Source: Candidatus Uhrbacteria bacterium (GTDB taxonomy: Bacteria > Patescibacteriota > Patescibacteriia > JACPHY01). Taken from it: 64,000 nucleotides of DNA. This document shows, one piece after another, positions 24,841 through 47,180 of the stretch (the first letter of the stretch is position 1; each line of letters begins with the position of its first letter). The position numbers were made by a program, and so were the translations under genes. Location of the stretch: NCBI GenBank assembly GCA_016188355.1, contig JACPHY010000016.1, positions 2,345-66,344 on the forward strand, given 5' to 3'. The notes under the pieces are model-generated. The model saw only the letters and a list, made by a program, of their open reading frames with translations, was not told the origin of the DNA and searched no databases.

Positions 24841-24997
24841 AGGCGAAGGGGCGATGGATTATCGTAGGACCGTTGCGGTGTTCGGCCCTGTGCATCGGCG
24901 AGATATGCACAGCACCGTAGCGGTTCGTACGGTTAGGAGAAATAGTATATCACGCGCAAGTGGTGATTTGCTGTGCATTGCGCATGCTACACTGCGA

Positions 24998-25729
24998 ATG
25001 CAGATTCATCATGCTATGCCCACGAAGCTCTCTCCGTCATTTGCGACCGAGCAATTGCGTCGACCACTCGTTGCGACGGATATTGTGGTTTTTGCGATTC
25101 GTGATGGCGCGCTTTCCGTGGTATTGATCCGTCGGGCAATGCCGCCATTCGCGGGAAAGTGGGCATTGCCGGGTGGATTTGTATTGCCGGAGGAGACGGT
25201 GGACCGTGCTGCGCAGCGCGAATTGCGCGAGGAAACTGATGTGCAGATTGCCGAGGGGTATCTCGAGCAGTTATATACCTTTGGCAATGTGCACCGTGAC
25301 CCGCGCGGTCGGGTCATTTCTGTGGCATATCTCGCGTTGATTCCGGGTGAGGCCGCAGTACCGCGTGGGGGTTCCGATGCCGCGGAGGCGCAGTGGTGGC
25401 CGATGGAACGGTTGCCGCCACTCGCTTTTGATCATGCGCAGATCATCGCGTACGCGGTGACGAGATTGCGGTACAAGCTCGAATACACGAACGTGTTGTA
25501 TGCAGCGCTGCCGAACCGTTTTTCGCTAACTGAGTTACAAGAAGCGTATGAGGCGGTGCTCGGTAAATCGCTGGATAAACGCAATTTTAGGAAGAAAATC
25601 GTTGCATTGGGTTTTGTGCAGCCGACCACACAGTACCGAAAGCCAGAGCAGGGGCGTCCTGCGCAATTGTGGCGTTTCACCAAACGAACGCCGGTGTCCG
25701 TAAAGACGTTTGTGACGAAGGCGGGATAG
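24998..25729 (+). CDS. NrtR-like Nudix hydrolase / regulator (Nudix domain plus C-terminal winged-helix-like domain)
   Basis: Nudix box GGFVLPEETVDRAAQRELREETDV. C-terminal region LYAALPNRFSLTELQEAYEAVLGKSLDKRNFRKK resembles the NrtR DNA-binding domain. Start could be 24998 or 25016. Confidence 0.7.
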   Translation: MQIHHAMPTKLSPSFATEQLRRPLVATDIVVFAIRDGALSVVLIRRAMPPFAGKWALPGGFVLPEETVDRAAQRELREETDVQIAEGYLEQLYTFGNVHRDPRGRVISVAYLALIPGEAAVPRGGSDAAEAQWWPMERLPPLAFDHAQIIAYAVTRLRYKLEYTNVLYAALPNRFSLTELQEAYEAVLGKSLDKRNFRKKIVALGFVQPTTQYRKPEQGRPAQLWRFTKRTPVSVKTFVTKAG

Positions 25730-25760
25730 GTTGCGGTGGGGCACAGAAGATGGTGTGGGC

Positions 25761-25790
25761 TTGACACTAAATTAGTGTTTGTTTTACAAT
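25761..25790 (+). promoter_or_regulatory. Near-consensus promoter TTGACA-N18-TACAAT upstream of the SPFH gene
   Basis: Both hexamers read directly in an AT-rich 230-bp intergenic region. Confidence 0.5.
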
Positions 25791-25850
25791 AATTACGAAG
25801 CTGCGATGCGGATGGAGTATGGTACGGACGGGAAGTGGTGGCGAAGCTGT

Positions 25851-25879
25851 TTAATTAGTGTGATAATTACACATTCAAG
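25851..25879. promoter_or_regulatory. Candidate operator ttaattagtgtgataattacaca (AATTAGTGT word also at 25771-25779 and a variant upstream of pncB)
   Basis: Repeated word AATTAGTGT plus near-palindrome TGTGATAATTACACA between the promoter and the SPFH start. Confidence 0.25.
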
Positions 25880-25964
25880 CAAGTGGAGGAGACGGGGGAT
25901 GCGCGTCCATTTGCTCGAGCGTGTGATGGACACACGCCGTTCCTTGGACAATGGAGGATGAGTC

Positions 25965-26849
25965 ATGCGACTACCGTTCACGTGGTACCGGGCAACGCCG
26001 GCAGAGTACGTCGTGAAGTTCGTGAATGGCGCGCGTCGCGCCGAAGGGAAGGGGAAGATCTTCTTCGTGGGGCCTCGCACGACCCTTGCGAGGGTGATGG
26101 CGACGGAATTCGGCATTGGGTATGCGTTCACCGAACGCACGGCCGATGGCCAGGAAGTCGTCGTGCATGGAGAAGTCGTCGTGCGGTTCGATGTGCAGAA
26201 GATGCTCGATCGGCATGACTTCTCGTTCGATCCGCGATCGGGTGTGGGCGAGGGGAGCGAAGACGTGGTGGAGAGTGAGGTGCAGGCCGTACTCCAGACG
26301 TATGTTCGTCGCGAGATCGCGACGAAGAAACTGAAGGATGCGCTTGCATCTGCGGCGGCGCTCCAGGCGACCGTGGCAGAGATGATCAAGAACGACAGCG
26401 CCGCATTCGACGCGTTGGGCGTCGGTGTGTGCAACCTCTTCGTGACGAACGTGTCGCCGGCGAATCTTGACCTCAAGAAGGCGCTCGAGGCCGAAGCGCG
26501 TGAGCAGATGCTCGCGGCGGCGGATCGTGCGCTTGCCGATCGACGCATGGATGCCGCGAGGAACGATCGTTCGCTCAAGGAGTTCGAATCCGATACGGCC
26601 ATGACGCTCGAGCAGCGGCGCGCGGCACTTGTCGAGGCGCGGAACAAGAACGTCGTGGCGGAAGCGGAGGCAGATGCAGAGGCGAATCGGAAGCGTCTCG
26701 AACCGTACGCGCATGTGGATCCGCGGATGGTGTTTGCGCTCGGCATTCGGGAGCTTGGCGCGAACGGTCGGATCGGGCAGTTCAACGTGACGCCGGAGTT
26801 TCTGGCGGCCATGCAGGGTGCGTCGAACGGCCGTATGCCGGGAGCGTGA
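25965..26849 (+). CDS. SPFH/band-7 domain protein without obvious TM anchor
   Basis: GGAGGA RBS. SPFH-like core followed by an E/A-rich helical tail; translationally coupled to the next gene (3-nt gap, GGGAG RBS). Confidence 0.6.
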   Translation: MRLPFTWYRATPAEYVVKFVNGARRAEGKGKIFFVGPRTTLARVMATEFGIGYAFTERTADGQEVVVHGEVVVRFDVQKMLDRHDFSFDPRSGVGEGSEDVVESEVQAVLQTYVRREIATKKLKDALASAAALQATVAEMIKNDSAAFDALGVGVCNLFVTNVSPANLDLKKALEAEAREQMLAAADRALADRRMDAARNDRSLKEFESDTAMTLEQRRAALVEARNKNVVAEAEADAEANRKRLEPYAHVDPRMVFALGIRELGANGRIGQFNVTPEFLAAMQGASNGRMPGA

Positions 26850-26852
26850 GCC

Positions 26853-27836
26853 GTGCCGACGCCCATCGAACGTGTGGTGCTCGTGACGAAGTCGTCGCGG
26901 CTGGCGGAGCTCCTCGATCGATATTGTGGTCGTGATCGGGTCCGGTTCGTGATCGAATCCCGTGGAGAGTCCTTTGCCGAGTATGAGGCAGAGGACGACC
27001 GATGGCGCATGGCAACGGACCGATTGCGGGCTGCCATCCCGCGGGAGATTGCGCATACGGTCATTTCCCGTGCCTACATCCCCACCGAGCTCTTCCGGCC
27101 CACGGATCTCGTGATGACGATCGGACCCGACGGACTCGTCGCGAATGCGGCGAAGTATCTCGACGGTCCGCCGATTCTCGCGGTGAATCCCGACCCAGAT
27201 CGGATCGATGGTACGATTGCGCGGTTCTCCCCGGATGCAGCGATCGCTGTGTTGCCGCGGCTGCTCCGCGGGCAGTATCGTACGGATCCGTTGACCATCG
27301 CGATGGCGACCACGAACGATGGACAGGTTGCCTATGCGGCGAACGATTTTCTCGTCGGTCGACGAGACACCGTTTCTGCACGGTATCGGCTCGGAGTAGG
27401 GAATGGACCGGATGTGGTTGCGTCCGAGCGACAATCCTCGAGCGGCGTTCTGGTGACGACTGGTCTCGGCTCCACTGCATGGGCAACGTCGATCGTATCG
27501 AGCGCATTTGCGATTGCCGCTGTCATGGTGGGATTCGGGACCGGAGAAGACCTCCGCGGAGAATTGCGCGTGCAGCAGGAATTTGAGGTTCCGTATCCCT
27601 GGAGTGCGCGTCATCTCCTCTTCTTTGTCCGCGAGGCATTCCCGACGCGTTCCACGAGCGCCCGACAGTGCTTCGGCCGCATCGAGGAAACAGGCGTGCT
27701 CGTGATCACCTCCGAAATGCCCGATGGGGGAGCGATATTCTCCGACGGCGTCGTCGAGGACGCGCTCCCATTCCTCGCCGGTACCACGGTCACGATCCGT
27801 CCGGCCGATCGTGTCGCGCAGCTCATTCGTCCCTGA
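26853..27836 (+). CDS. NAD-kinase-fold protein (divergent, GPDG instead of GGDG; non-canonical paralog of nadK)
   Basis: DLVMTIGPDGLV... and NDFLVGRR...VLVTTGLGSTAWATSI align to the NadK GGDG and NE/D...TPTGSTAYS segments; GTG start. Confidence 0.55.
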   Translation: MPTPIERVVLVTKSSRLAELLDRYCGRDRVRFVIESRGESFAEYEAEDDRWRMATDRLRAAIPREIAHTVISRAYIPTELFRPTDLVMTIGPDGLVANAAKYLDGPPILAVNPDPDRIDGTIARFSPDAAIAVLPRLLRGQYRTDPLTIAMATTNDGQVAYAANDFLVGRRDTVSARYRLGVGNGPDVVASERQSSSGVLVTTGLGSTAWATSIVSSAFAIAAVMVGFGTGEDLRGELRVQQEFEVPYPWSARHLLFFVREAFPTRSTSARQCFGRIEETGVLVITSEMPDGGAIFSDGVVEDALPFLAGTTVTIRPADRVAQLIRP

Positions 27837-27847
27837 TCCCTCATTTG

Positions 27848-27868
27848 AGCCCGATCCCAGCGATCGGG
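27848..27868 (+). terminator. Weak hairpin after the NAD-kinase-like gene (gcccgatc...gatcgggc), followed by a second palindrome
   Basis: 8-bp stem, no clear U-tract; factor-independent termination uncertain. Confidence 0.3.
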
Positions 27869-27966
27869 CGTCCTCTCGGGATCCGTACGGAATCGTACGG
27901 AGTCCGAGATGGTGGACATGAAAATACTATTGAACCCAGCGACAAAAACGTTCATGTTTCCAGGAC

Positions 27967-27995
27967 TTGACGTAATTGGTTTTTCTGTGTAGGTT
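27967..27995 (+). promoter_or_regulatory. Putative promoter TTGACG-N17-TAGGTT upstream of the PP2C-kinase pair
   Basis: Located in an AT-rich 320-bp intergenic region, about 200 nt upstream of the PP2C start. Confidence 0.35.
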
Positions 27996-28192
27996 TGGCG
28001 TATCTATCAGAAAAATAAGCGATTTTGTACATGGTGGCGGTGCTTCATGGGTAGCGATGCTACGGAGTGCTCACGTGAACGGGTGATGCGGGGCATCGTC
28101 TTTTCGGGTGAGCATTCAACGATCGTTGATTCACAATGTATCAATTACTGTAACTGCTCGTGGGTGTTGCTCACGAGGAGAGGGGAGGGTAC

Positions 28193-29095
28193 ATGCGAGA
28201 TCAGTTCGCGGTCGCGGGCGGCTCCATCGCCGGTCGCGACCACACGCGCGCGGGCAGAAATAATCATGATGCGTTCTCCTGGATTCAAGATCCGGACTGG
28301 ACTATCGCATTCGTCGCGGATGGCTGTGGTGGTGCGGATGACAAAGTGCCGATGGATGTACGCGTCCGGCACGGCGCGGGTCCGCATAGTGAGGTGGGCG
28401 CGAAGCTTGGGGTGCGTCTGGTTGCAGAGTCCGTCCGCCGAAGTTTGCGGCGATTCGCCGAGCATCCGATTGCAGCGACCGGCGTGTTGCCGGAGCACGA
28501 TTCCTTCTGGGAGCGGATTCGTCAGGATGTGCTCGCCGGTCTCCGTGTATTGGCGCTCCAGATGGGCGACAGCCTTTCCGAGGTGGTGAACGAGTATTTC
28601 CTCTTCACCCTCGTTGGAGCGGTGATCACGAAATGGGGAACGTCGATCGTTTCATTGGGCGATGGCATTTATGGGTGCAACGGCAACGTACGCGTCCTGG
28701 GTCCATATCCCGATAATGAGCCACCGTACCTCGCGTACGGTCTCGTGCCGACCTCCCTCGCAAATACAGATCCGCGGCTCCTGAAATTCGTGGTGCATGA
28801 AATGCTATCGACGGATCAGGTGCATTCGATTCTCCTGGGTACCGACGGCGGCAAGGATCTGCAGGAAGCCGCTGGCCGTTGTATTCCTGGCAGTGCAGAG
28901 CTCGTCGGTCCTTTGGATCAATTCTGGATGAACGATCTCTACTTCCGAAATCCGGACGCGCTGCGCCGTCGACTGGCGGTGATCAACCGTGATCGGAGTG
29001 TTCAGGGTGACGGTGGCGGTACGCAGAATGCTGCCGGCCTACTCCCGGACGATACGACGCTCATTGCCATCCGGAGACGATCCGGAGGTGCGTGA
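28193..29095 (+). CDS. PP2C-family Ser/Thr protein phosphatase
   Basis: GGGGAGGG RBS before MRDQFAVAGGS. PP2C motifs DGCGG, LGDGIYGCNGN, DDTTLIAIRR. Stop overlaps the kinase ATG (TGATG). Confidence 0.8.
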   Translation: MRDQFAVAGGSIAGRDHTRAGRNNHDAFSWIQDPDWTIAFVADGCGGADDKVPMDVRVRHGAGPHSEVGAKLGVRLVAESVRRSLRRFAEHPIAATGVLPEHDSFWERIRQDVLAGLRVLALQMGDSLSEVVNEYFLFTLVGAVITKWGTSIVSLGDGIYGCNGNVRVLGPYPDNEPPYLAYGLVPTSLANTDPRLLKFVVHEMLSTDQVHSILLGTDGGKDLQEAAGRCIPGSAELVGPLDQFWMNDLYFRNPDALRRRLAVINRDRSVQGDGGGTQNAAGLLPDDTTLIAIRRRSGGA

Positions 29096-30990
29096 TGGAC
29101 GTGTTCATCGATGGAAAGAAGTTTCGTGTTTCGCCGAAGCAGGCGATTGGAAAGGGCGGAGAGGCGGACGTCTACAATCTCGGTGATGGGCGGGCGCTGA
29201 AGATCTTCAAGCCGCCGACGCATCCCGATTATGCGGACATACCGGATCGCGGAGAGCGCGAACGGGAAATGTGTGGCGCGCGAGATCGGATCGCGCTCCA
29301 TCAGGAGAAGCTCCCCGCGTTTCCCAGAGACCTCCCGGATCACGTCGTGGTGCCCGCGGATCTGGCCATGGATGCAGGAGGATCATCAATCGTTGGGTAC
29401 GCGATGCCGCTCCTCACCGGTGCGGAAACGTTCTGGAAATACGGGCATCGCGGAGAGCGACCGGCGGGTATCACGAACGAGCACGTGCAGAGCATCCTTC
29501 GGAATCTCCATCGGACCGTGCAGGGATGCCATGCGAAGCAGGTGGTCATTGGCGACTTCAACGACCTCAATGTGTTGGTGGTCGGGGAGGAGCCCTACCT
29601 CATCGATGTGGACAGCTTCCAGTTCGGGAAGTATCTCTGCCGGGCATTCACGGTGCGCTTTGTGGATCCGCTCCGGTGTGATCCGCATGCATCGAGTTTG
29701 CTCCTGGCGCAGCCGCACACTCCCGATTCGGACTGGTACGCGTTCACTGTGATGCTCATGCGGAGCCTGCTCTTCGTGGAGCCGTACGGTGGGGTGTTCA
29801 AACCGAAGGATCGCACGAAGTTGGTGCCTCATGATGCGCGGCCTCAGCATCGTATTACGATCTTCCATCCCGAGGTGATTTGTCCCAAGGTGGCCATTCC
29901 GTATGGAAGACTTCCAGACGATCTCCTCCATCACCTGCAGCAGGTGTTCGAGAAGGATCTCCGTGGGGTGTTCCCGATGCAGCTGCTCGAGAGCATGCGT
30001 TGGACGACCTGCGCGCAGTGCCAGACGGAGCATGCGCGAGCGCTTTGTCCGAATTGCCAGCATGCGGCTCCGGCGGCGATTCGGGAGGTGACCGTGATTC
30101 GTGGCCAGGTGACCGCGACGCGGATTTTCCGCACGCATGGTCGAATCTGTCAGGCGGCGATGCAGGATGGTGCGTTGTGTTGGTTGTATCATGAGGACCA
30201 CGCATTTCGTCGGGAAGATGGCGCGTTGGTGATTTCCGGCGGCATGGATCCCAAGTTTCGCTACCGTCTCCAGGGTCGCGCGACGCTCATCGCCCGCGAT
30301 GATCAGCTCGCGACGATTTCGCCGCATGCGGGAACGCAACGACGGACCGTCGAACAATTCCAGGGTCGATTGCCCGTCTATGATACGAACGCGCGCCACG
30401 CCTACTGGCTGGAGGGTGGCACGATCTATCGGGACGGCGATCTCGCTCAGGAACGTATCGGCGATGTGTTGGCGGGACAGACGTTGTTTTGGGTGGGGCC
30501 GGCATTCGGGTTCGGGTTCTATCGAGCCGGCGAGCTCAATGTGGCGTTCGTCTTTGATGCAGAGCGTCGCGGTATCAATGATGCGGTATCATTGCCACGT
30601 TTCCACGGTCAGATCCTCGATGTCGCGACGACGTTCTCCAATGAGCGCTGCTGGTTCTTCGTTGCATACGAACACGGAGGGAAGACGGTGCATCGGTGCA
30701 CGGTGATCCGTCCGGATGGCGGCATCGAAGCAACCATGGAGGCGACGGCTGGGGAACCGGCGTGGTCGTGGCTCGGAACGATCCGTGGTCACGCGGCAAC
30801 GGGAAAGTTCCTCCTCGCGGCAACGGATGACGGTATCGTCCGCGTCGAAGTGCATCAGGGGCAGCTTGCGGCGACGAAGTCCTTTCCGGATACGGAGCCG
30901 TTTGTGGGGGCCGGTGACTTGCTCTTCGCGGGAAAAGACGGTCTCTACGTCGTGAGTCGCAGCGAGATCACGCGTCTCCAGATTCGCTAA
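29095..30990 (+). CDS. Ser/Thr protein-kinase-like protein with internal Zn ribbon (CAQC...CPNC) and C-terminal beta-rich domain
   Basis: Gly-rich loop IGKGGEADVY, lysine ALKIF, catalytic-loop-like VIGDFNDLNVLV, DFG-like IDVDSF. Confidence 0.7.
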   Translation: MDVFIDGKKFRVSPKQAIGKGGEADVYNLGDGRALKIFKPPTHPDYADIPDRGEREREMCGARDRIALHQEKLPAFPRDLPDHVVVPADLAMDAGGSSIVGYAMPLLTGAETFWKYGHRGERPAGITNEHVQSILRNLHRTVQGCHAKQVVIGDFNDLNVLVVGEEPYLIDVDSFQFGKYLCRAFTVRFVDPLRCDPHASSLLLAQPHTPDSDWYAFTVMLMRSLLFVEPYGGVFKPKDRTKLVPHDARPQHRITIFHPEVICPKVAIPYGRLPDDLLHHLQQVFEKDLRGVFPMQLLESMRWTTCAQCQTEHARALCPNCQHAAPAAIREVTVIRGQVTATRIFRTHGRICQAAMQDGALCWLYHEDHAFRREDGALVISGGMDPKFRYRLQGRATLIARDDQLATISPHAGTQRRTVEQFQGRLPVYDTNARHAYWLEGGTIYRDGDLAQERIGDVLAGQTLFWVGPAFGFGFYRAGELNVAFVFDAERRGINDAVSLPRFHGQILDVATTFSNERCWFFVAYEHGGKTVHRCTVIRPDGGIEATMEATAGEPAWSWLGTIRGHAATGKFLLAATDDGIVRVEVHQGQLAATKSFPDTEPFVGAGDLLFAGKDGLYVVSRSEITRLQIR

Positions 30991-31011
30991 TTTGTGTAGA
31001 TGTTTGTGGGG

Positions 31012-31054
31012 AATTGCGGCAGCCCACAGCATCGGTATCTCCACTGCCGCAATT
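31012..31054. promoter_or_regulatory. 11-bp perfect inverted repeat aattgcggcag-N21-ctgccgcaatt directly upstream of the nicotinamidase-like gene
   Basis: Read directly; lies between the kinase stop (30990) and the AAGGAG RBS of the next gene. Confidence 0.3.
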
Positions 31055-31079
31055 ACGAGACAAGAAGAAGGAGTTCGCC

Positions 31080-32243
31080 ATGGGTAAGGCTCTTCCGTTC
31101 CCGAAATTCTACGATCCGCACAACGTCAGCGACTGGAATTACGCGCCGGATCTCCAGGAGGTGCTCCTGGAGGCGCAGGAATACGTACGGCGCAACGACA
31201 TCAAGCCGGCGTCCACCGCGAAGGTGCGGATCGGCGTTCTCGGCATCGACAACCAGAAGGACTTCTGCTATCCGCCGGACGCGCGGGTCGTCCGTGGCAA
31301 GCCGCGCGGCGGCACGCTCTACGTGGCGGGCCGGAGCGGCACTGGCGCGATCGATGACAGCCGGCGGTACACCGAGTTCCTCTACCGGAACGCGGCACAC
31401 ATCACGAACATCTGGGACACGATGGACACGCACTTCCTATATCAGTGCTTCTTCCCGACGTTCTGGCTCCTCGAGAACGGTCAGCATCCCAATCCCCATA
31501 CGCTGATCGACCTCAATGCGCACGAGCAGCTCGTGAACCTCGATCTCGCGGGCAAGGAGATCGGCGCGGTGCGGGTGAATCCCGCCATCATGTCGTGGCT
31601 CCTCCCCGGGGTGTCGCCGAGCGCGGCGTTCACCTGGGCGACGAAGCAGATGGAATTCTATGCGCGTCAGCTGAAGCTGCCGAAGGGGCAGTACTCGAAG
31701 ACCCCGTACACGCTGTATCTTTGGCCGTTCCACTGCATCCTCGGCGGTGACGGGCACGCGCTCGTGGGGAGCATCCAGGAGGCACGGATGTTCGTCGCGG
31801 CGGCGCGCGGCATCCAGTCGTATCGCGAGGTGAAGGGAGGGAACGAGTGGTCCGAGAACTACGGCATCATCAGTGCCGAAGTACTCGAACGCCATGACGG
31901 CAAGGGGCAGATCGCGCAGAAGAACGTCGCGTTCCTGAAGAAGCTCCTCGAGCATGACATCATCATCATCGGCGGTCAGGCGGCGAGCCACTGCGTGAAG
32001 AGCTCGATCGAGCAGATCCTCGACGGTATCGTCGCGCAGGATCCGAAGCTCGCGAAGAAGGTGTACATCCTCGAGGACTGCATGTCCGCAGTCACCGTGC
32101 CCGACGGGAAGGGCGGATTCGCGGCGGACTTCACGCCGCAGGCGGAAGCGGCGATCCTCGAGTTCAAGAAGGCGGGCATGCACGTCGTCCAGTCGACGGA
32201 TTCCATCGAGAGCTGGCCGGGCGTCGGATCGCTCGCGGCCTAA
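31080..32243 (+). CDS. Enlarged isochorismatase-family cysteine hydrolase, nicotinamidase (PncA)-like
   Basis: GIDNQKDFCYPP resembles the PncA DVQNDFC motif; catalytic-Cys segment IIIGGQAASHCVKSS. About 390 aa versus about 190 for canonical PncA. Confidence 0.6.
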   Translation: MGKALPFPKFYDPHNVSDWNYAPDLQEVLLEAQEYVRRNDIKPASTAKVRIGVLGIDNQKDFCYPPDARVVRGKPRGGTLYVAGRSGTGAIDDSRRYTEFLYRNAAHITNIWDTMDTHFLYQCFFPTFWLLENGQHPNPHTLIDLNAHEQLVNLDLAGKEIGAVRVNPAIMSWLLPGVSPSAAFTWATKQMEFYARQLKLPKGQYSKTPYTLYLWPFHCILGGDGHALVGSIQEARMFVAAARGIQSYREVKGGNEWSENYGIISAEVLERHDGKGQIAQKNVAFLKKLLEHDIIIIGGQAASHCVKSSIEQILDGIVAQDPKLAKKVYILEDCMSAVTVPDGKGGFAADFTPQAEAAILEFKKAGMHVVQSTDSIESWPGVGSLAA

Positions 32244-32326
32244 TCCACTTCGGAGGGGTCGCCGGTGGTGCTTTCGGGTGCCATTGGCGATCCTTTCGAA
32301 CCACCAAAACCAAAGGAGTATCTACC

Positions 32327-33127
32327 GTGGCGAATACGGGTTCTTCCCAGAACGTCAGTCAGCTCTTCCAGGCCGCGCAGCAGGAGGGCGACCTCTCGGC
32401 GCAGTCCGCGGCGATTCTGCTCGCGCCGGATATGGGTCTCCAGATTCAGGCCGGGCTCGGCGCGCAGATCGATGATGTCCAGGCGAGCGAGGTGTTTCTC
32501 GTGGCGCTGATGCCGGATGACTCTGGGTCGATCGCGTCTGCGAACAATGAGCAGACCGTTCGTGACGGACACAACCTCGTGATCGAGGCCCTGCGGGATT
32601 CGAAGCAGGGCGATGGCATCCGGGCGCACTGCCGATATCTGAACGGCAAAGTGCTCTACGCGTTCGGGTCGCTCGACGCGGCCGTGAAGATGGATGGTCG
32701 AAACTACCGCGCGGACCAGGGGACGCCGCTCTACGATCAGACGGTGGTGCTCCTCGGGACGGTACTCGCGGAGGCGAAGGCGTTCGAGGATGCGGGCGTT
32801 CCGGCACGGACCGCGACCCTCATCATCACCGATGGCGCCGATCTCCACTCGAGGAGGAAGGCGAAGGATGTGAAGGCGATCGTCGACGATATGCTCCGCA
32901 AGGAAATGCATATCGTCGCGGCCATGGGCATCGATGACGGTGGCGGCACGGACTTCCGCAGGGTGTTCCGCGACATGGGCATCCGCGACGAGTGGATCCT
33001 CACGCCGGGCAACTCGGCGAGCGAGATTCGTCGGGCATTCTCGGTGTTCTCGCGGTCCGCGGTGCGTGCGTCGCAGTCCGCGGGCAGCTTCAGTCAGACG
33101 GCGGCCGGCGGTTTCGGCGCTCCGTAG
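32327..33127 (+). CDS. Small vWA-domain protein (TerY-like) with intact MIDAS
   Basis: DDSGS MIDAS, downstream Thr and TDGADL motif; GTG start with AAGGAG RBS. Confidence 0.7.
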   Translation: MANTGSSQNVSQLFQAAQQEGDLSAQSAAILLAPDMGLQIQAGLGAQIDDVQASEVFLVALMPDDSGSIASANNEQTVRDGHNLVIEALRDSKQGDGIRAHCRYLNGKVLYAFGSLDAAVKMDGRNYRADQGTPLYDQTVVLLGTVLAEAKAFEDAGVPARTATLIITDGADLHSRRKAKDVKAIVDDMLRKEMHIVAAMGIDDGGGTDFRRVFRDMGIRDEWILTPGNSASEIRRAFSVFSRSAVRASQSAGSFSQTAAGGFGAP

Positions 33128-33185
33128 CTGATCATCGGTACGCAGTTCCTTCTGACCGGTCCCACCATGCGTGGGGCCGGTCGTT

Positions 33186-33376
33186 CTTTTCACAAGGGAC
33201 TTCGTCCTCGGTGCGACCCCTGCCTCGCCACGGCGCAGGAGCCGGGCAAAGCCCTTCTCCTCCTGCTTGGGCTCGGCATGCCCTCTTTTCACAAGGGACC
33301 TCGTCCTCGGTGCGACCCCTGCCTTGCCATGGCGCAGGAGCCGGGCAAAGCCCTTCTCCTCCTGCTTGGGCTCGGC
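33186..33376. repeat. Two tandem 99-bp direct repeats (about 95% identical), each containing a nested stem-loop gcaggag-cc-gggc-aaa-gccc-ttct-ctcctgc
   Basis: Copies start at 33186 and 33285 with identical cores. Located between the vWA stop and a shared terminator; a third diverged copy is at 836-900. Confidence 0.7.
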
Positions 33377-33378
33377 GG

Positions 33379-33420
33379 TGAAAAAAAGAACACCGGCTCT
33401 GGGGAAGCCCAGAGCCGGTC
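33379..33420 (-). terminator. Intrinsic terminator for the convergent large vWA gene (11-bp stem ccggctctggg/cccagagccgg plus U7 on minus strand)
   Basis: Perfect stem with gaag loop. tgttcttttttt follows on the minus strand; T-rich flank also on the plus side (possibly bidirectional). Confidence 0.5.
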
Positions 33421-33446
33421 TTATTCATCCGTCGTTCACTGAAGTC

Positions 33447-35833: not shown

Positions 35834-36070
35834 GGTATACGGGAGCCGCATGTTGCGGCTCCCGTTGTTCGTGGGTGAGCATTCGGCTCTCCTGGGCCAA
35901 TTCTGTGGTAGAGGTTGACAACTGAGCGGATTTGTGGTTGTCTGGGAGTGCATCAAAGGCGATGGGTCGGCGGAGCAGGTCCGTCGAGCCGCTCGTTCAT
36001 AATTGAGGTGGTTTTCCGTACAAAAACGATCCGCGCATGTGCGCGAGATCCGGGAAGGAAGGAGATCGTG

Positions 36071-41331: not shown

Positions 41332-42282
41332 GTGATGGAGGAAGTGCTGCGTGGGCAACCCATACGGGTGATCGGGTGCGTGGTATCGGCGCATGCGCAT
41401 GCACAGGTGCTTGCGGAGCGATTGCGCCGCATCTGGAATTCGGCGGATGCGTCGGGTTTGGGATGGGTAGATGGGGAATCGCCCAAGGAACTGGCCGCGG
41501 CAATGGCATCCGCGCAGTCCACCGCATCCATTCCCGTTTCGTGCATTGATGCGGTCTTCGTGGTGGGTGGCGATGGATTTCTCATGGAGACATACCACGC
41601 ATTCGATGGCACGGGTCTCCGGCCGCTCCTCATAGGATGGAATGCGGGGCATGTGGGATTTCTCATGAATGATGCGCCGCACGCTGATGATGCGCTGCAG
41701 GTGCAGCTGGCGAATTTCCGTAACGGCGTCTACACCACGGAACTCGCGTATCCGGTGTGTGCGCAGGTGCAGCTCCGGGATGGAACGGAGCGCACCATTC
41801 GGGCGTTCAATGAGATTACGCTCCGCGCATCCGGTCGCCAGGCGGTCCGACTGCATCGGTGGATCAATGGAGCGGATTTGGGAGTATTTGGCGGTGGCGG
41901 ATTCATTGTGGCGACCCCGCAGGGATCCACGGCGTTTGCAGGAGATGCGGGTGGTCCGCTAGTGGATCCCGCCGTTCCATCGCTCGTGCTGGTCCCAATG
42001 ACGACGCATCGTGCGCGTATTTTCGCGCAACTTCATAACGCGCTGGTGCTCTCGCCCCATTCGTCCATCCGTGTGGATGTGCTGGAACGGGACAAGCGAC
42101 CGATCGCGGTGGAAACGGAAACGGAGCAGATCACGGACGTGGATCGCGTCCTGATTACGAGCGCGTATCGGCACGGCCCATCGCAGGCGATCGCATTGGG
42201 GTATGCGTATGCCCCGGACGGTCGACGCTTTCCCGCGCGAGTCGCCAAGAAATTCATCGGGAGGATTCGGGAGCGGCACTAA
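41332..42282 (+). CDS. nadK: NAD kinase
   Basis: VVGGDGFLM GGDG motif and GGGFIVATPQGSTAFAGDAGGP; AAGGAGG RBS. Confidence 0.85.
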   Translation: MMEEVLRGQPIRVIGCVVSAHAHAQVLAERLRRIWNSADASGLGWVDGESPKELAAAMASAQSTASIPVSCIDAVFVVGGDGFLMETYHAFDGTGLRPLLIGWNAGHVGFLMNDAPHADDALQVQLANFRNGVYTTELAYPVCAQVQLRDGTERTIRAFNEITLRASGRQAVRLHRWINGADLGVFGGGGFIVATPQGSTAFAGDAGGPLVDPAVPSLVLVPMTTHRARIFAQLHNALVLSPHSSIRVDVLERDKRPIAVETETEQITDVDRVLITSAYRHGPSQAIALGYAYAPDGRRFPARVAKKFIGRIRERH

Positions 42283-42312
42283 GGTATCCGTGGCGGTTCG
42301 CCGCAACGCAGT

Positions 42313-42346
42313 GGAGTCATTCCTTTGGAGTGACTCCGTTCTTTTT
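42313..42346 (+). terminator. Intrinsic terminator after nadK (ggagtca...tgactcc plus ttcttttt)
   Basis: 7-8 bp stem and U-run directly after the stop. Confidence 0.5.
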
Positions 42347-42361
42347 GATGTAGTTGACGAT

Positions 42362-42393
42362 AGTTAGTGTCAAATGCACAATAATTGTATACC
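42362..42393. promoter_or_regulatory. Candidate operator/promoter upstream of pncB containing agttagtgtcaa and cacaataattgtat
   Basis: Shares the TTAGTGT and ATAATT words with the 25771-25879 sites; preceded by TTGACG at 42354. Confidence 0.25.
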
Positions 42394-42601
42394 GGTTCCG
42401 GAATCGCTTTGATTGGGCATTTGGACATCCATTTGACGCTTTGGTGATTTCATGATAGGGTTTTGGGTCTGTAGAGGGAAATTGAGGTTCCGTGCGCTGG
42501 GCGCGCGCGGGTGCTCAGTGGCTCTCGATGGCTCTTTTGGATCGCAGGCAACAGACGGAAGCGCTGCGTGCAATGGCGCGTCAGCAGAAAGGAGCTTGGG
42601 A

Positions 42602-43900
42602 ATGCAATTTCTTCGATCACCGCATCCGCTCTTACGGCAGTTCGTGGTGGATGGACCGATCATCGAATCGCTGCTCGATGTCGACTTCTACACCTTCACG
42701 ATGCAGGCGTACATTCGGAGGTACCATCCCGGGACCCATGTGCGCTTTGGGCTTCGGAATCGCACGAAGATTCCGCTCGGGCGTTCCATCCGGGAAGGGG
42801 AGCTCCGTGAGCAGCTGGATCATGTCCGCTCGCTCCGCGCGACGCGGTCCGAATGCCATTACCTTGCGGGTACGTTCGAATACGGCCGGCGCATGTTCGA
42901 CGATGCGTACATCGACTGGTTCGCAAACCTGCAGCTGCCCGAGTACGATCTCGAGTATCTTCCGGATGGCCACATCCGCCTCGAGTTCGCGGGGGACTGG
43001 GAGGCGGCGCTGCATTGGGAGACCATCGGCATGCCCATCCTGACGCAGCTCTACTTCAAGAGCCTACTCAAGAACATGATGACGATCGAGTGTGATGCGG
43101 TCGTTGCGGAGGGCATCCGGCGTCTCCATGAGAAGATACAGATGGTCCAGCAGCGCTGCGCATCGGGGCGACCGTTCTCCTTCGCGGAGTTCGGCACCCG
43201 GCGCCGCGCGTTTCGTGACTGGCAGCGCTACACGGATGCCATGTTCGGGGAGAGCTTGCCGGGTCAGTATCTCGGTACCTCCAATACGTTGAACGCCATG
43301 CTCCTCGGGCAGCAGCCCATGGGCACGAATGCGCACCAGCTCCAGATGGTGGCGGTGGCGCTCGCATCTTCCGGGAGCGATGAGGACATGCGTGCCGCAT
43401 CGCGACAGGTGTACGAACGGTGGTGGGAGATGTTTGGGCATGGACTCTCAATTGCACTGCCGGATACGTACGGAACGCCTGCGGGTCTCGAAGACCTCGG
43501 TGCATCGGGGGCGGGGTACTGGAAGGGTACGCGTCAGGATTCGGGATCGCCTGAGCGGGACACTGACCGGAAGATCGCATGGTACCTATCGCACGACATT
43601 GATCCTCGGGAGAAGCTGCTCTTGTACTCCGATGGGCTCACCTTTCCGCGCGCGTTCGCAATCGACGACTACCGCGCCGGCGCAATCAAGAAATCGTTCG
43701 CGCTCGGGACGAATGCGACGAATGACTTCCCGGTTCCGTCCGCGCTCTCCATCGTCGTGAAGCCGCTCCGTGCGAACGTGTTCGGATGCGTGAAGCTCTC
43801 TGACAACCCCGCGAAGGCGCAGGGCGATGCCGAGCTCATCCAGCGATACTGTCGCGTCTTCCGGTACCAGGAGGGCGAACGGACAGAGTGCGTGTATTGA
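42602..43900 (+). CDS. pncB: Nicotinate phosphoribosyltransferase
   Basis: AAAGGAG RBS before MQFLRS. Motifs DVDFYTFTMQ, EFGTRR and LGTSN typical of PncB. Confidence 0.85.
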   Translation: MQFLRSPHPLLRQFVVDGPIIESLLDVDFYTFTMQAYIRRYHPGTHVRFGLRNRTKIPLGRSIREGELREQLDHVRSLRATRSECHYLAGTFEYGRRMFDDAYIDWFANLQLPEYDLEYLPDGHIRLEFAGDWEAALHWETIGMPILTQLYFKSLLKNMMTIECDAVVAEGIRRLHEKIQMVQQRCASGRPFSFAEFGTRRRAFRDWQRYTDAMFGESLPGQYLGTSNTLNAMLLGQQPMGTNAHQLQMVAVALASSGSDEDMRAASRQVYERWWEMFGHGLSIALPDTYGTPAGLEDLGASGAGYWKGTRQDSGSPERDTDRKIAWYLSHDIDPREKLLLYSDGLTFPRAFAIDDYRAGAIKKSFALGTNATNDFPVPSALSIVVKPLRANVFGCVKLSDNPAKAQGDAELIQRYCRVFRYQEGERTECVY

Positions 43901-43911
43901 GGTAGAAGTAT

Positions 43912-43938
43912 GAGCGGTCCGGAAGGACCGGACCGCTC
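43912..43938 (+). terminator. GC hairpin after pncB (gagcggtccgg aagg ccggaccgctc), no U-tract
   Basis: 11-bp stem read directly; termination function uncertain. Confidence 0.3.
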
Positions 43939-44026
43939 CTTGCTCGAGGCGCGAAGTGCGACGACGCATTTCGCGGCTCAAGCGAAGGAATGCTCATGAC
44001 GTCAACACCAAGAGGAGGGACGATCC

Positions 44027-44971
44027 GTGCAAATTCAGACGTTCAGCATCGTGGTAGGGACCAAAGCGTGCAACGCGCGGTGTCCGTTCTGCGTGAGCAG
44101 CATGACGGGATTCGGGGAGCTGCCGAAACGGGGAGCGATCGAGTTGGTGCATTTCGCAAAGGCCTGTCAGCTCGCGCGGCTCGCCGGCACCACGACGGTG
44201 CTCATGACGGGCAAGGGCGAACCGACGCTCTATCCGGAGGAGATCTCCGAATACCTCCGGCTGCTCGTGCGCAGCCAGTTCCCGTTCATCGAGCTCCAGA
44301 CGAATGCGCTGGATATCGGCTGGCTCGCGCGTGACGGTCGGGCGAAGCACGCGAAGTCACTCGAGCGCCACACGTTAGCGGGGTGGCGGCAGAGCGGGCT
44401 GAATACGGTCGCAATCTCGGTGGTGGGCATCGACCCGGAGCTGAATCGTCCCGTATACCACGATGACTACCCGGATCTCGCGACGACGATCAAATTCCTC
44501 CACGAGATCGGATTCACCGTGCGGCTGTGCGTCATGATGCAGCAGGGCAGTGTGGATACTCCGGAGGCGTTGCAGCGGGTCATCGATTTTTGTCGGATCA
44601 ACCTCGTGGAGCAGCTCACGGTGCGGCCGATTCGGAAGCCCGATCATAGCGAGGATCGCGACGTATCGACGTACGTCGTCGAGCGCGGGATCACCCACGA
44701 TCAGGAGTTGGTCATCCGTACGTGGGTCGAGCGGCAGGGGCGTCGGCTCCTCTCGCTCATGCATGGGGCTATCGTGTACGACGTTGGTGGGCAGAACGTG
44801 TGTCTCTCGGACTGCCTCACGAACGATTCATCGAATGGAGACATCCGGACGCTCATTTTCTACAGCGATGGGCGACTGACCTACGATTGGCAGTACGAGG
44901 GCGCGGTGCTCCTCGGCGGCGTGCCGATGGCATTGCGGGAGGCCGATCGCCGAAATCGAGAGGAGATTTGA
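44027..44971 (+). CDS. Radical SAM domain protein of unknown function (CNARCPFC)
   Basis: GTG start with GAGGAGGG RBS. CxxxCxxC cluster near the N-terminus, glycine-rich SAM motif GKGEP. Confidence 0.65.
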   Translation: MQIQTFSIVVGTKACNARCPFCVSSMTGFGELPKRGAIELVHFAKACQLARLAGTTTVLMTGKGEPTLYPEEISEYLRLLVRSQFPFIELQTNALDIGWLARDGRAKHAKSLERHTLAGWRQSGLNTVAISVVGIDPELNRPVYHDDYPDLATTIKFLHEIGFTVRLCVMMQQGSVDTPEALQRVIDFCRINLVEQLTVRPIRKPDHSEDRDVSTYVVERGITHDQELVIRTWVERQGRRLLSLMHGAIVYDVGGQNVCLSDCLTNDSSNGDIRTLIFYSDGRLTYDWQYEGAVLLGGVPMALREADRRNREEI

Positions 44972-45131
44972 GCGCGTGACGAAGGGATGAGGATGGGGAG
45001 ATAGGCTGGTGCGGTCCTGCGAATAGCGGGACCGCACTCCACCAGAGCTTCGATGATGATCGAGATTCTGGCGGAGTGAAAGCTCCGTGCTGCTTTCCCA
45101 ATTCAGACTACTGAGCAAGGAGGATGCGATC

Positions 45132-47180
45132 ATGGCACAGCATCAGGGATTCGTGCGCATTGCGACTGCGGTACCTCGAGTACATGTCGGAGATCCTGAG
45201 GCGAACGTGCGGGCGATGGTTGAGCTCGCGAAAACAGCGGGGAATGCCGGTGCGCAGGTGCTCGTGTTCCCAGAGCTTGGGATCACCGGATACACCTGCC
45301 GGGATCTCTTCCTGCAGCCGGAGCTGCAGCGGGCTGCGTACGCACAGCTGCGCACGTTTGTGATGCGAATGGATAATGAGGCGTGCCGCGGCATGCTTGC
45401 GATTGTGGGGCTGCCGCTCGCAGTGGACGGACAGCTGTTCAATGTGGCAGCGGTTGTGGTAGCAGGGGAGGCGCGGGTGCTCGCGTACATCCCGAAGGTA
45501 TACCTCCCGGGGTACAAGGAGTTTGAGGAGAATCGGTGGTTTGCACCTGCGGATCGATTGTGCAGCACGGTCCATGCGGATGATGGCGCGCTCATTGGCG
45601 CGGATATTCTGATCGACGTGCGCACGACCGCAATGCGGCGGTTCACGCTCGGCGTCGAGATTTGTGAGGATCTCTGGATGCCGATCCCGCCCAGCTCGCA
45701 TCTCGCAAATCAGGGTGCGACCGTGCTCCTGAATTGCTCCGCGTCAAACGCGGTTGTGGGCAAGGCGGACTACCGTCGCGAGCTCGTGCGGGGTCAGTCC
45801 TCGCGGTGCATCGCGGCGTACGCGTACGTCTCGTGTGGTCCGGGGGAATCCACCGCGGACGTCTCCTTTGATGGACATGCGTTCATTGCGGAGAACGGAT
45901 CGCTGCTCGCGGAATCGCCGCGATTTCAGCGGACGGGACACCTCACGGTCGCGGATGTGGACGTGGAGCGTTTGCTCCGCGAGCGAACCATGACCGGAAG
46001 TTTCGGGCAGTCCGTCGCGTCAGAGCAACGCGCGTACCGACGCGTGCTTGCGGATGGCATCACGGAACTCAATGTGCGGCAGTCGTTTCGGCGGAGTGTG
46101 GATCCGTTCCCGTTCGTACCGCGTGACCCCGCAACACGCGATGCGCGGTGTGATGAGGTGTTCGCGATTCAGGTGGATGGTCTGACGCGTCGCCTCGAGC
46201 ACCTCGAAGCGATGACCGGGAAGCGACAGGTGAGCATCGGCATCTCCGGTGGGCTCGACTCGACGCTCGCGCTGCTCGTCGTCGTCCGTGCGTTCCAGGC
46301 GCTTGGGTGGGATCTTTCGGGGATCCACGCATACACGTTCCCGGGGTTCGGAACCACTGACCGCACGAAGAGCAATGCGTACGCGCTCTGCGCAGCGCTC
46401 GGCGTTCCGTTGCGTGAGGTGTCCATCGTCGAAGCGTCATTGCTCACGTTGCGTCAGCTGGGGCACCTGCATGCGGACGAGCAGCCGCACCGCGATTGCC
46501 TCACCTGTCAGAACGCGCAGGCGCGCATTCGAACGCTCTTTCTGATGACGGACGGATTCGTCATTGGCACTGGCGACCTCTCCGAGAGCGCGCTCGGGTG
46601 GTGCACGTACAATGGCGACCACATGTCCATGTACAACGTGAACGCGGGCGTGCCGAAGACACTCGTCCGGTACGTGGTGGGCTGGGTGGCAGAGCGCGGG
46701 TTGCTCGGAGCAGCGGCATCAACCGTGCTCCGCGATATCCTCGCGACGCCGATCTCGCCCGAGCTCGATCCCGTAGCCGCAGATGGCCAGATGGGGCACA
46801 CGACCGAGGAGCAGATTGGTCCGTACGACCTGCACGATTTCTTCCTGTTCCACTTCCTTCGGAATGGGTATGGTCCCCGGAAGATTGTTTTCCTTGCGGA
46901 ATGTGCGTTCGCCAATATCCGATGGGAAGACGGTCCGCATCGCGGAGAACTCAAGTATCCGTCGTCCGTGATTCGGAAGTGGCTGCTCGAGTTCTTCCGG
47001 AGGTTCCCGAAGGCGCAGTTCAAGCGGGACGCGGCGCCGGACGGTGTGAAGGTAGGATCTGTCGCTCTTTCGCAGCGCGGAGACTGGCGCATGCCGAGCG
47101 ACGTGGACATGGCGCTTTGGGTTCATGAGGCGGAGGCTCTCCTCGCAGAGGCAGAGCATCGGGACGCAGACACGGATTGA
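45132..47180 (+). CDS. nadE: Glutamine-dependent NAD+ synthetase (nitrilase-type glutaminase domain plus NAD synthase domain)
   Basis: AAGGAGG RBS before MAQHQG. CN-hydrolase N-domain (VFPELGITGY) and PP-loop SGGLDSTLAL. Confidence 0.9.
   Translation: MAQHQGFVRIATAVPRVHVGDPEANVRAMVELAKTAGNAGAQVLVFPELGITGYTCRDLFLQPELQRAAYAQLRTFVMRMDNEACRGMLAIVGLPLAVDGQLFNVAAVVVAGEARVLAYIPKVYLPGYKEFEENRWFAPADRLCSTVHADDGALIGADILIDVRTTAMRRFTLGVEICEDLWMPIPPSSHLANQGATVLLNCSASNAVVGKADYRRELVRGQSSRCIAAYAYVSCGPGESTADVSFDGHAFIAENGSLLAESPRFQRTGHLTVADVDVERLLRERTMTGSFGQSVASEQRAYRRVLADGITELNVRQSFRRSVDPFPFVPRDPATRDARCDEVFAIQVDGLTRRLEHLEAMTGKRQVSIGISGGLDSTLALLVVVRAFQALGWDLSGIHAYTFPGFGTTDRTKSNAYALCAALGVPLREVSIVEASLLTLRQLGHLHADEQPHRDCLTCQNAQARIRTLFLMTDGFVIGTGDLSESALGWCTYNGDHMSMYNVNAGVPKTLVRYVVGWVAERGLLGAAASTVLRDILATPISPELDPVAADGQMGHTTEEQIGPYDLHDFFLFHFLRNGYGPRKIVFLAECAFANIRWEDGPHRGELKYPSSVIRKWLLEFFRRFPKAQFKRDAAPDGVKVGSVALSQRGDWRMPSDVDMALWVHEAEALLAEAEHRDADTD

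Follow-up and report, generated by a model that had tools for sequence, protein, structure and literature searches.

Gene content of the locus

The 64,000-nucleotide stretch of DNA analysed here (the window) belongs to Candidatus Uhrbacteria bacterium (GenBank assembly GCA_016188355.1, contig JACPHY010000016.1, positions 2,345 to 66,344). We concentrated on a block of seven consecutive plus-strand open reading frames (ORFs) at 24854-33127, designated G1 to G7 (Table 1), in which an NrtR-type regulator is followed by an SPFH protein, a paralogue of the kinase acting on nicotinamide adenine dinucleotide (NAD), a PP2C-type phosphatase, a Ser/Thr kinase, a long nicotinamidase-like hydrolase and a von Willebrand factor A (vWA) protein. 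Both the seven genes and these domain assignments had been proposed in a first-pass annotation made from the sequence alone; the ORFs are present in the ORF listing of the window and each assignment was upheld, those of G1, G2 and G4 by Pfam, that of G3 by NCBIfam and the Protein Data Bank (PDB), those of G5 and G7 by AlphaFold2 (AF2) models and Foldseek, and that of G6 by family motifs and a profile match. The GC content across the block (0.55-0.64) is like that of its flanks and of the rest of the window. G5 and G7 are 100% identical to the hypothetical proteins HYV74_04375 and HYV74_04385, respectively, of a 'Candidatus Uhrbacteria bacterium' metagenome-assembled genome (MAG).

The G2 stop and G3 start are separated by 3 bp and the G4 stop and G5 start overlap as TGATG, in line with the couplings that the first-pass annotation had noted for both gene pairs. 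Ribosome-binding sites are present in the 89-bp G5-G6 spacer and in the 83-bp G6-G7 spacer. The longest ORF of G1 opens at 24854, with a likely start at 24998 or 25016, that of G6 opens at 31014, with a likely start at the ATG at 31080, and G4 likely starts at the ATG at 28193, which is preceded by GGAGG.

Table 1. Coordinates of the seven genes, associated sites and neighbouring features, numbered from the first nucleotide of the window.
Feature	Position	Strand	Details and basis
G1, NrtR-type regulator	24998..25729	+	Nudix sensor and winged-helix DNA-binding domain; Pfam, NCBIfam
Candidate NrtR operator pair, 22 bp apart	25750..25792		ATGGTGTGGGCTTGACACTAA (25750) and TTAGTGTTTGTTTTACAATAA (25772)
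Sigma-70-like promoter upstream of G2	25761..25790	+	TTGACA-18-TACAAT
Third, weaker NrtR-like box	25855..25875		TTAGTGTGATAATTACACATT; GTGT-N7-ACAC scan; arms only partly palindromic
G2, soluble SPFH/Band-7 protein	25965..26849	+	C-terminal coiled-coil-like region; Pfam Band_7
G3, NAD-kinase-fold paralogue	26853..27836	+	NCBIfam; PDB, NADK2
G3-G4 spacer	27837..28192	+	Hairpin 27849-27869; weak promoter-like site 27967-27995
G4, PP2C-type Ser/Thr phosphatase	28160..29095	+	Pfam PP2C_2
G5, kinase with Cys4 zinc ribbon and beta-propeller	29095..30990	+	Alignment, AF2, Foldseek
Perfect 11-bp inverted repeat, G5-G6 spacer	31012..31054	+	Read from sequence
G6, long-form nicotinamidase-like cysteine hydrolase	31080..32243	+	Family motifs, profile match to nicotinamidases
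G7, vWA protein with complete metal ion-dependent adhesion site (MIDAS)	32327..33127	+	Alignment, AF2
Intrinsic-terminator-like hairpin after G7	33153..33183	+	13 pairs and T-tail
Tandem duplication, 99 bp x 1.9	33185..33376		Tandem Repeats Finder (TRF)
Terminator hairpin of convergent VWA gene	33392..33419	-	T-run on minus strand
Convergent canonical VWA protein, 543 amino acids	33447..35078	-	Pfam VWA_2, 5e-18
Rest of NAD block, nadK to nadE	41332..47180	+	Pfam, NCBIfam
nadK	41332-42282	+	NCBIfam NAD kinase, 7e-31
Second perfect NrtR box, upstream of pncB	42364..42384		TTAGTGTCAAATGCACAATAA; arms identical to those of the 25772 box
pncB	42452-43900	+	Pfam, NCBIfam
Radical-SAM gene	44027-44971	+	Pfam, NCBIfam
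nadE	45087-47180	+	Pfam, NCBIfam

A TerY-P-like triad enclosing a long nicotinamidase-like protein

The phosphatase G4 matches Pfam PP2C_2 at 5e-15 (56 bits against a cut-off of 24) and the motifs DGxGG, TDG and DDxT are visible in its translation. G5 scored only 0.008 against Pfam Pkinase in a hidden Markov model (HMM) scan; an alignment of 24 homologues has an invariant G-loop, catalytic K36, GDFNDLN and DxDSF, with a Cys4 zinc ribbon (C306/C309/C318/C321) directly after the kinase domain (residues 1-300) and a beta-propeller at residues 335-631. Its AF2 model (predicted local distance difference test score, pLDDT, 89) contains the kinase domain, the zinc ribbon and an all-beta propeller, and Foldseek matched it to LRRK2 (kinase plus WD40), PknA/B, CaMKII, CDK2 and propeller proteins. 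A kinase acting on a small molecule was considered less likely, since G5 resembles bona fide protein kinases most closely in fold and its partner is a protein phosphatase. G7 had no match in the HMM scans of Pfam and NCBIfam and its profile found nothing useful in the PDB; its AF2 model (pLDDT 87) matches vWA/MIDAS folds (TRAP, CMG2, C2a and integrin I domains) at E ~1e-6. The MIDAS residues of G7 (DxSxS..T..D; D64-D-S-G-S68, T133 and D169) are invariant in 22 sequences, the protein is 56-65% identical across phyla and it has a conserved Ser/Gln-rich C-terminal tail.

The TerY-P (TerY-phosphorylation) triad, which Anantharaman, Iyer and Aravind are said to have described in 2012, reportedly comprises a TerY-like vWA protein, a PP2C phosphatase and a Ser/Thr kinase fused to a zinc ribbon. 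All three features are found here, namely a MIDAS vWA protein, a PP2C in the same operon and a eukaryote-type kinase whose catalytic domain leads directly into a Cys4 zinc ribbon, so that the triad reproduces the architecture as the first-pass annotation had held; the likeness is one of domain architecture (PMC11090510). It differs from TerY-P in several respects: a nicotinamidase-like gene lies between the kinase and vWA genes in nearly every locus, the kinase has an extra C-terminal beta-propeller, and the genomic context is NrtR and NAD salvage (pncB, nadE, nadK, prs, ARH, NADAR) rather than ter genes, McrBC/CoCoNuT or nucleases.

The enclosed protein, G6, gave nothing useful in a sequence search of the PDB. 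Its family comprises more than 2,600 homologues of ~350 amino acids, many of them named nicotinamidase or carrying a precomputed PF00857 assignment, and has the invariant motifs IDxQxDF, MDTHF, WPxHC, EVKGG and ASHCV. The family profile aligns at these motifs to the nicotinamidases 3r2j (Leishmania) and 3pl1 (M. tuberculosis), with E-values of only 0.01-0.03. A predicted Asp-Lys-Cys triad consists of the invariant D57, K252 (or R243) as candidate lysine, and C305, and a predicted DxH...H metal site consists of the invariant D116, H118 and H218 in MDTHF and WPxHC. In known nicotinamidases the DxH...H site binds the unsubstituted pyridine nitrogen. Judged by these residues, G6 would most likely deamidate free nicotinamide to nicotinate. 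With canonical PncA/Pnc1 (3pl1, 3r2j) it shares the isochorismatase-type IDxQxDF Asp, the KG lysine, the HCV Cys and the DxH...WPxHC metal site; it differs in its length (~350-390 versus ~185-230 amino acids), its N-terminal extension, a large insertion that separates the DxH motif from WPxHC, a divergence that places it beyond Pfam and NCBIfam thresholds, and its almost constant embedding in the triad. The first-pass annotation had singled out a PncA-like protein of double the normal size; the protein is long, but this is no oddity, ~350 amino acids being the norm of its family. Some long PncA homologues reach ~600 amino acids (P0043, P0053, P0098 and the 604-residue protein at 10919-12733 of locus L096), with an extra ~250 N-terminal residues that have no Pfam match.

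A cassette conserved across phyla

We fetched 80 genome loci, one species each, with the alignment of long PncA homologues, and located the counterparts of the window proteins by tblastn. Counts were made on the 63 loci with at least 3 kb upstream and at least 1 kb downstream of the PncA-like gene. PP2C, kinase, long PncA and vWA are colinear on one strand in 59 of these, with median identities to the window proteins of 41%, 49%, 51% and 62%, respectively, indicating linkage rather than scatter. Among the exceptions, L019 has PncA and vWA only, and L037, L049 and L055 lack a PP2C, kinase or vWA match and have NrtR directly upstream of PncA. NrtR directly precedes PP2C in 35 of the 59 cassette loci and lies within 10 kb in 41. 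Many of the loci are from Myxococcota, others from Elusimicrobia, Uhrbacteria, Parcubacteria, Komeilibacteria and gammaproteobacterial MAGs, and protein searches add Cyanobacteria (Leptolyngbya, Kovacikia, Planktothrix, Nostocaceae) and Blastocatellia. The arrangement is thus kept in at least five phyla, namely Myxococcota, Elusimicrobia, Candidate Phyla Radiation (CPR)/Patescibacteria, Cyanobacteria and Acidobacteria, and three of the cassette protein families are of similar size (2,638, 2,542 and 1,928 matches). In a set of Kofleriaceae/Haliangiales loci (L030, L032, L058-L060, L068, L070, L073, L075, L077, L080) the best tblastn kinase segment covers only 51-57% of G5, which suggests a C-terminal region that is shorter or has diverged.

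Around the cassette, genes of NAD metabolism recur, with pncB, nadE, a predicted NadD-like-NAD kinase (NADK) fusion and prs variously adjoining it in L001, L004, L044, L064, L096 and L097. The uhrbacterial locus L001 reads NrtR, a 112-amino-acid gene, a short PncA-like gene, PP2C, kinase, long PncA, vWA, convergent VWA, ARH, Nudix, pncB, radical-SAM and nadE; L096 reads NrtR, PP2C, kinase, PncA, vWA, the predicted NadD-like-NADK fusion, ARH, Nudix, PncB, Prs and NadE; and L097 reads PncB, PP2C, kinase, PncA and vWA. In the Elusimicrobia loci L044 and L064, PP2C, kinase, PncA and vWA are followed by PncB, SPFH and an NADK-like gene, then by NrtR in L044, the L064 contig ending inside the NADK-like gene. 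In the Blastocatellia locus L094 they are followed by a 173-amino-acid gene, DUF4291, NADAR, SPFH, PARG, NADK-like and NrtR. The order of Kovacikia minuta (L082, 713-10792) is PP2C, ARH, OGFr_N, ARH, kinase, ..., PncA, ..., vWA. The L096 fusion (13814-15199) joins a NadD-like (CTP_transf_like) domain to an NAD kinase (Pfam NAD_kinase), and in L082 two ADP-ribosylglycohydrolase genes and an OGFr_N gene are inserted between PP2C and kinase, with Uma2-family genes also breaking up the cassette. The long PncA is the only PncA-like gene identified in the L096 operon with PncB, the fusion, NadE and Prs, a pathway setting that speaks for nicotinamidase activity, and G6 is likewise the only one seen in the window. 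The first-pass annotation had taken both the NADK-like and the PncA-like genes for extra, non-housekeeping copies, which stands for G3, given the canonical nadK at 41332, and is doubtful for the PncA-like gene. Its NAD-metabolite theme, on the other hand, was borne out, NAD and ADP-ribose being what unifies these genes.

The pncB-radical-SAM-nadE order is the same in the window, L001/L002 and L004, and the larger order NrtR ... cassette ... convergent VWA ... pncB-radical-SAM-nadE is kept in related MAGs. G7 had no tblastn match in 72,556 plasmids or 50,697 phages. Given the normal composition, the retained synteny, the strong protein conservation and this lack of plasmid or phage matches, the locus is not a mobile island, contrary to the first-pass view of a composite island.

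Predicted NrtR operators

By both of its domains G1 is a textbook NrtR (Pfam NUDIX 5e-21 and NrtR_WHD 6e-22, NCBIfam NrtR 1e-47), and the Nudix box G-x5-E-x7-RE-L-x-EE is nearly intact in its translation. According to Rodionov et al. (2008; PMC2330246), the NrtR operator is a 21-bp palindrome with the core GT-N7-AC that overlaps promoters, and ADP-ribose antagonises DNA binding by NrtR, a property known for the Shewanella and Synechocystis proteins. The operator pattern occurs six times in the window against 0.6 expected, and none of 100 shuffles reached six. The candidate pair at 25750 and 25772 overlaps the -35 and -10 elements of the promoter at 25761, which scores 11/12 and is the best within 24500-35500. 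In the window, a GTGT-N7-ACAC pattern scan showed no NrtR box preceding G1, G4 or G6. Based on these sequence matches, the boxes at 25750-25792 and 42364-42384 are probably bound by G1.

The same type of palindrome accompanies the cassette elsewhere. We searched the loci for 21-bp sites in which GT occupies positions 6-7, AC occupies positions 15-16 and no more than one of the seven arm positions breaks the palindrome. In 49 of 62 loci one or more such sites lie within -300..+20 of PP2C, at a density of 3.18 per kb near PP2C against 0.11 per kb elsewhere (28-fold). The consensus across loci is TTAGTGT-N7-ACACTAA, with GTGT and ACAC essentially invariant though the scan did not demand them, and palindromes are often paired at 22-bp spacing, upstream of PP2C or SPFH in other phyla too. 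They precede PP2C in the cyanobacterium L082 and the acidobacterium L094, SPFH in L085 and L087, and nrtR and the Nudix-nadV genes in L089. Since the core GT-N7-AC and the overlap with promoters match the published operator (PMC2330246), we take the palindromes of the window and of the related loci to be predicted NrtR operators. Such sites, which the first-pass annotation had missed, appear from the sequence to be the main organising element of the locus.

The first-pass annotation had called two strong promoters and a terminator shared with the convergent VWA gene. The promoter at 25761 held up, whereas the site at 27967-27995 (TTGACG-17-TAGGTT) scores 8/12 and was not called by the scan. 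There are two terminators rather than one: the 13-pair hairpin at 33153-33183, followed by TTCTTTTC, is G7's own, and the second, at 33392-33419, shows a T-run on the minus strand alone and is thus predicted to serve the convergent VWA gene. The only strong plus-strand terminator lies after G7.

Defence and reversal of ADP-ribosylation as possible alternative roles

A TerY-P-like triad under an apparently ADP-ribose-regulated operator also recalls anti-phage systems, and the first-pass annotation had put forward a signalling module directed against invaders. Were the locus a TerY-P-type conflict module, the vWA-PP2C-kinase set would sense infection and the PncA-like protein would be the effector; NAD cleavage by a phage or toxin would yield ADP-ribose and release NrtR, the phospho-switch would activate the long nicotinamidase, and nicotinamide would be turned into nicotinate, reusable only via host PncB. 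The effector might destroy nicotinamide needed for NAD rebuilding by the phage, thereby denying it NAD-reconstitution pathways, or might relieve the product inhibition that nicotinamide exerts on NADases and NAD-consuming defence enzymes, and the module would then extend immunity by a metabolic arm, one shared by at least five phyla. ADP-ribose is a product of defence NADases, the triad, including the zinc ribbon after the kinase, fits the TerY-P description, and TerY-P-like modules are stand-alone anti-phage systems according to PMC11090510 (citing Gao et al. 2020). We nevertheless consider a defence role improbable. PADLOC scans of eight proteins gave no match for G4 or G7 at E<=0.01 or E<=10, and for G5 only short, weak matches to families other than TerY-P (MkoA 8.5e-4, PD-T4-6 0.086), so that no credible match was obtained for any of the three even at E<=10; PADLOC-DB contains TerY-P models. 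The Nudix protein gave a weak match to PDC-S07, and membership in a known defence family was rejected, all matches being weak. Unlike fast-evolving defence loci, G4-G7 retain 40-62% identity across phyla in a fixed gene order, the vWA protein is without match in plasmids and phages, in further distinction from TerY-P, the neighbours are NAD biosynthesis genes rather than nucleases or other effectors, and composition is normal.

The ARH, NADAR, PARG, DUF4291 and OGFr_N genes in or beside the cassette at related loci point to another alternative, a relative of the ARG-centred systems, regulated by Nudix-HTH or WYL proteins, for which Iyer et al. (2022; PMC9503650) proposed a role in freeing host proteins of ADP-ribose. 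Here the vWA protein would be a peptide-binding chaperone, PP2C and kinase would act on the targets and PncA would recycle nicotinamide. PMC9503650 describes ARG with a Nudix-HTH regulator, a phosphatase and a vWA chaperone, and the present loci share with these systems the NrtR-like repressor, the vWA protein, a phosphatase and, at some loci, ARH/NADAR/Macro-type enzymes. However, the window operon lacks ARH, Macro, NADAR and PARG genes, and the invariant core is PP2C-kinase-PncA-vWA, not ARG. The phosphatases named in that text are of other classes (rhodanese, calcineurin, HD and HAD, not PP2C), term searches of it returned no nicotinamidase, PncA, isochorismatase, SPFH or NADK, and its section 3.8 describes no kinase partner (PMC9503650). 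There are also no nuclease effectors or rapid evolution here, the sequences being conserved, and a relationship of this kind seems to us unlikely.

The SPFH-NADK-like module

G2 matches Pfam Band_7/SPFH at 4e-9 (37.1 bits against a cut-off of 23.6). G3 has no Pfam match and falls below the curated NADK thresholds of NCBIfam (2e-6; 27 bits against cut-offs above 300); its best solved-structure match is human NADK2 (3e-7). With bacterial NadK/PpnK and the human mitochondrial NADK2 it shares the GxDG, ND and TGxGSTxW motifs, which its family keeps as GPDG/GQDG, NDF and TGxGSTxW, and its similarity to the window's own nadK is at motif level only. The gene at 41332 is a canonical nadK by its NCBIfam match, which makes G3 an extra paralogue. 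Unlike these NAD kinases, G3 belongs to a separate small family (142 cluster representatives at E<=1e-30 in an exhaustive HMMER search) that is recurrently paired or fused with SPFH and sited at NrtR boxes.

Scanning the G3 alignment against metagenomes yielded 11 loci, seven of which have SPFH directly upstream of the G3 homologue (L083-L085, L087-L089, L091), as do L044 and L064, the two genes being one gene apart (PARG between) in L094. In P0363 (574 amino acids) an SPFH domain (16-197) is fused to a G3-like NADK-fold domain (283-573) that is 52% identical to G3. NrtR lies directly downstream of the pair in L085, L087 and L088, and L089 reads NrtR, Nudix, NadV, Prs, NADAR, SPFH, NADK-like and ARH. 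SPFH and NADK-like genes thus form a second recurrent module at NrtR boxes.

Whether the two modules belong together bears on a further alternative, in which nrtR, SPFH-NADK-like and PP2C-kinase-PncA-vWA are three independent units that are neighbours by chance in a compact genome. The G3-G4 gap contains a hairpin and a weak promoter, SPFH-NADK-like-NrtR occurs in L085 and L087 without a cassette within 10 kb, and tblastn found the SPFH and NADK-like genes to be absent from most Myxococcota cassettes. Against coincidence, both modules carry the same operator type and recur together in the Elusimicrobia L044 and L064 and the Acidobacteria L094; the L096 cassette adjoins the NadD-like-NADK fusion, whose kinase is of canonical type and may be unrelated to G3. 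Moreover, the operon's only boxes and only strong promoter lie upstream of G2 and its only strong plus-strand terminator after G7. Since the boxes and strong promoter are upstream of G2 and no box lies in the G3-G4 gap, a single unit from 25761 to 33153-33183 is suggested, and we find a chance association quite doubtful.

A probable NrtR-controlled NAD-recycling unit

Domain identities, gene linkage and the conservation and placement of the operators, all of them observed here, argue for another interpretation, namely that the block is one NrtR-controlled NAD-recycling unit of two modules, ADP-ribose-inducible and with a nicotinamidase step gated by a TerY-P-like phospho-switch. With some reserve, we consider this interpretation probable. 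G1 would bind the tandem TTAGTGT-N7-ACA(C/A)TAA boxes over the promoter at 25761 and the identical box before pncB. ADP-ribose, a by-product of NAD cleavage, would release the NrtR repressor, and SPFH-NADK-like-PP2C-kinase-long PncA-vWA would be transcribed to the terminator at 33153-33183, along with pncB(-radical-SAM-nadE). The Preiss-Handler route consists of PncA, PncB, NadD and NadE; conversion of nicotinamide to nicotinate by G6 would be the entry to it, with PncB and NadE completing the route. The kinase with its zinc ribbon and propeller, the PP2C and the MIDAS vWA protein would together act as a reversible phospho-switch of the TerY-P kind, most likely gating or scaffolding the long nicotinamidase, such that nicotinamide removal would track the NAD-consumption state of the cell. 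The triad is nearly always coupled to this enzyme, and the Ser/Gln-rich G7 tail and the G6-specific insertion are candidate phosphorylation substrates. The SPFH-NADK-like module would here have been inserted between the operator-promoter and PP2C, where SPFH would serve as scaffold for G3 as it phosphorylates NAD or a related dinucleotide. What we infer in this scheme is that ADP-ribose acts as inducer in the Uhrbacteria host, that transcription continues from G3 into G4, which compounds G6 and G3 act on, and what the kinase and phosphatase target.

Several points weigh against the NAD-recycling unit as drawn. G6 itself matches neither PF00857 nor NCBIfam PncA above threshold. L001 (1347-2090) and L004 (6081-6830) have a second, shorter PncA-like gene between NrtR and PP2C, which fills the slot taken by SPFH-NADK-like in the window and encodes a protein of 247 amino acids matching NCBIfam PncA at 1.6e-20 over its C-terminal half; because these operons encode two PncA-like enzymes, the long form may differ in substrate or role. 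Some clusters (Cyanobacteria, Acidobacteria, some CPR) also carry ARH, NADAR, PARG, Nudix and OGFr_N genes, and with ARH/NADAR/PARG present the role could lie in the reversal of ADP-ribosylation instead of in simple salvage. The set of 80 genome loci consists of best matches and is dominated by Myxococcota. Pattern and promoter scans found no NrtR box and no strong promoter in the 323-356-bp G3-G4 gap, and it is for this reason that co-transcription of the two modules is assumed; that the kinase would act on G6 or G7 is likewise something we infer.

Compared with the NrtR regulons of Rodionov et al. (2008), the locus shares a Nudix plus winged-helix regulator beside NAD salvage genes and a 21-bp operator over a promoter (PMC2330246). 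Typical regulon members there are pncA, pncB and nadE, and also nadV-prs, niaP and nrtX-nrtY; neither the table of that paper nor a term search of it turned up a protein kinase, PP2C, vWA, SPFH or NADK-like member, and Myxococcota, Elusimicrobia, CPR and Acidobacteria lie outside the table (PMC2330246). The literature searched contained no description of the cassette or of the SPFH-NADK-like pair, the 2012 Ter paper being outside that coverage.

As far as could be determined, therefore, an NrtR-regulated NAD-recycling operon with a TerY-P-like switch around a long nicotinamidase, here joined to SPFH-NADK-like, is a widely conserved, undescribed variant. Control of NAD salvage in bacteria is usually regarded as chiefly transcriptional, through NadR, NiaR and NrtR. 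The cassette points to a conserved post-translational layer of kinase, PP2C and MIDAS adaptor around the nicotinamidase step, on a scale of more than 2,000 protein clusters in Myxococcota, Cyanobacteria, Acidobacteria, Elusimicrobia and genome-reduced CPR bacteria. The enigmatic TerY-P-type triad would gain a concrete, assayable metabolic partner, and the predicted NrtR regulon would be extended by two uncharacterised modules, the cassette and SPFH-NADK-like. Retention of the whole set by a CPR genome of limited size suggests that the function is important, and Myxococcus xanthus and filamentous cyanobacteria offer tractable hosts in which to study it.

Spacers, repeats and neighbouring genes

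Between the kinase stop and the PncA-like start, the inverted repeat AATTGCGGCAG-N21-CTGCCGCAATT (31012-31054) might control G6 separately, either as a hairpin in the RNA or by binding a protein. The tandem 99-bp repeats reported in the first-pass annotation were confirmed (TRF score 363, 96% matches); they lie between the two convergent terminators, and each copy opens with the T-tail of the plus-strand terminator. A dispersed element was rejected, as no further copy of the unit was found in the window or in 82 loci, leaving a local tandem duplication. An Rfam search of 24000-36000 at E<=1 gave no match for the repeat or the spacers. Among the closest relatives, L001 has an 87-bp spacer at the position of the duplication.

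A 738-amino-acid protein encoded divergently to nrtR (22624-24840, minus strand) has an N-terminal hydrophobic segment, GGPPPGG/GGNxGG low-complexity repeats and a helical C-terminal half, and had no tblastn match in the related loci searched. A radical-SAM gene lies between pncB and nadE in three CPR-like genomes (window, 44027-44971; L001, 12693-13625; L004, 17419) at 50-66% identity, its similarity to MoaA being weak. The convergent VWA gene was found by tblastn to be kept only in the closest relatives (L001-L003) and is a neighbour outside the core unit. At 33447-38554 it is followed by a divergent gene for an 879-amino-acid protein with a TPM domain and a long Ala/Glu-rich coiled-coil-like region, and the same VWA and TPM-protein pair is present at 6163-8408 of L003.

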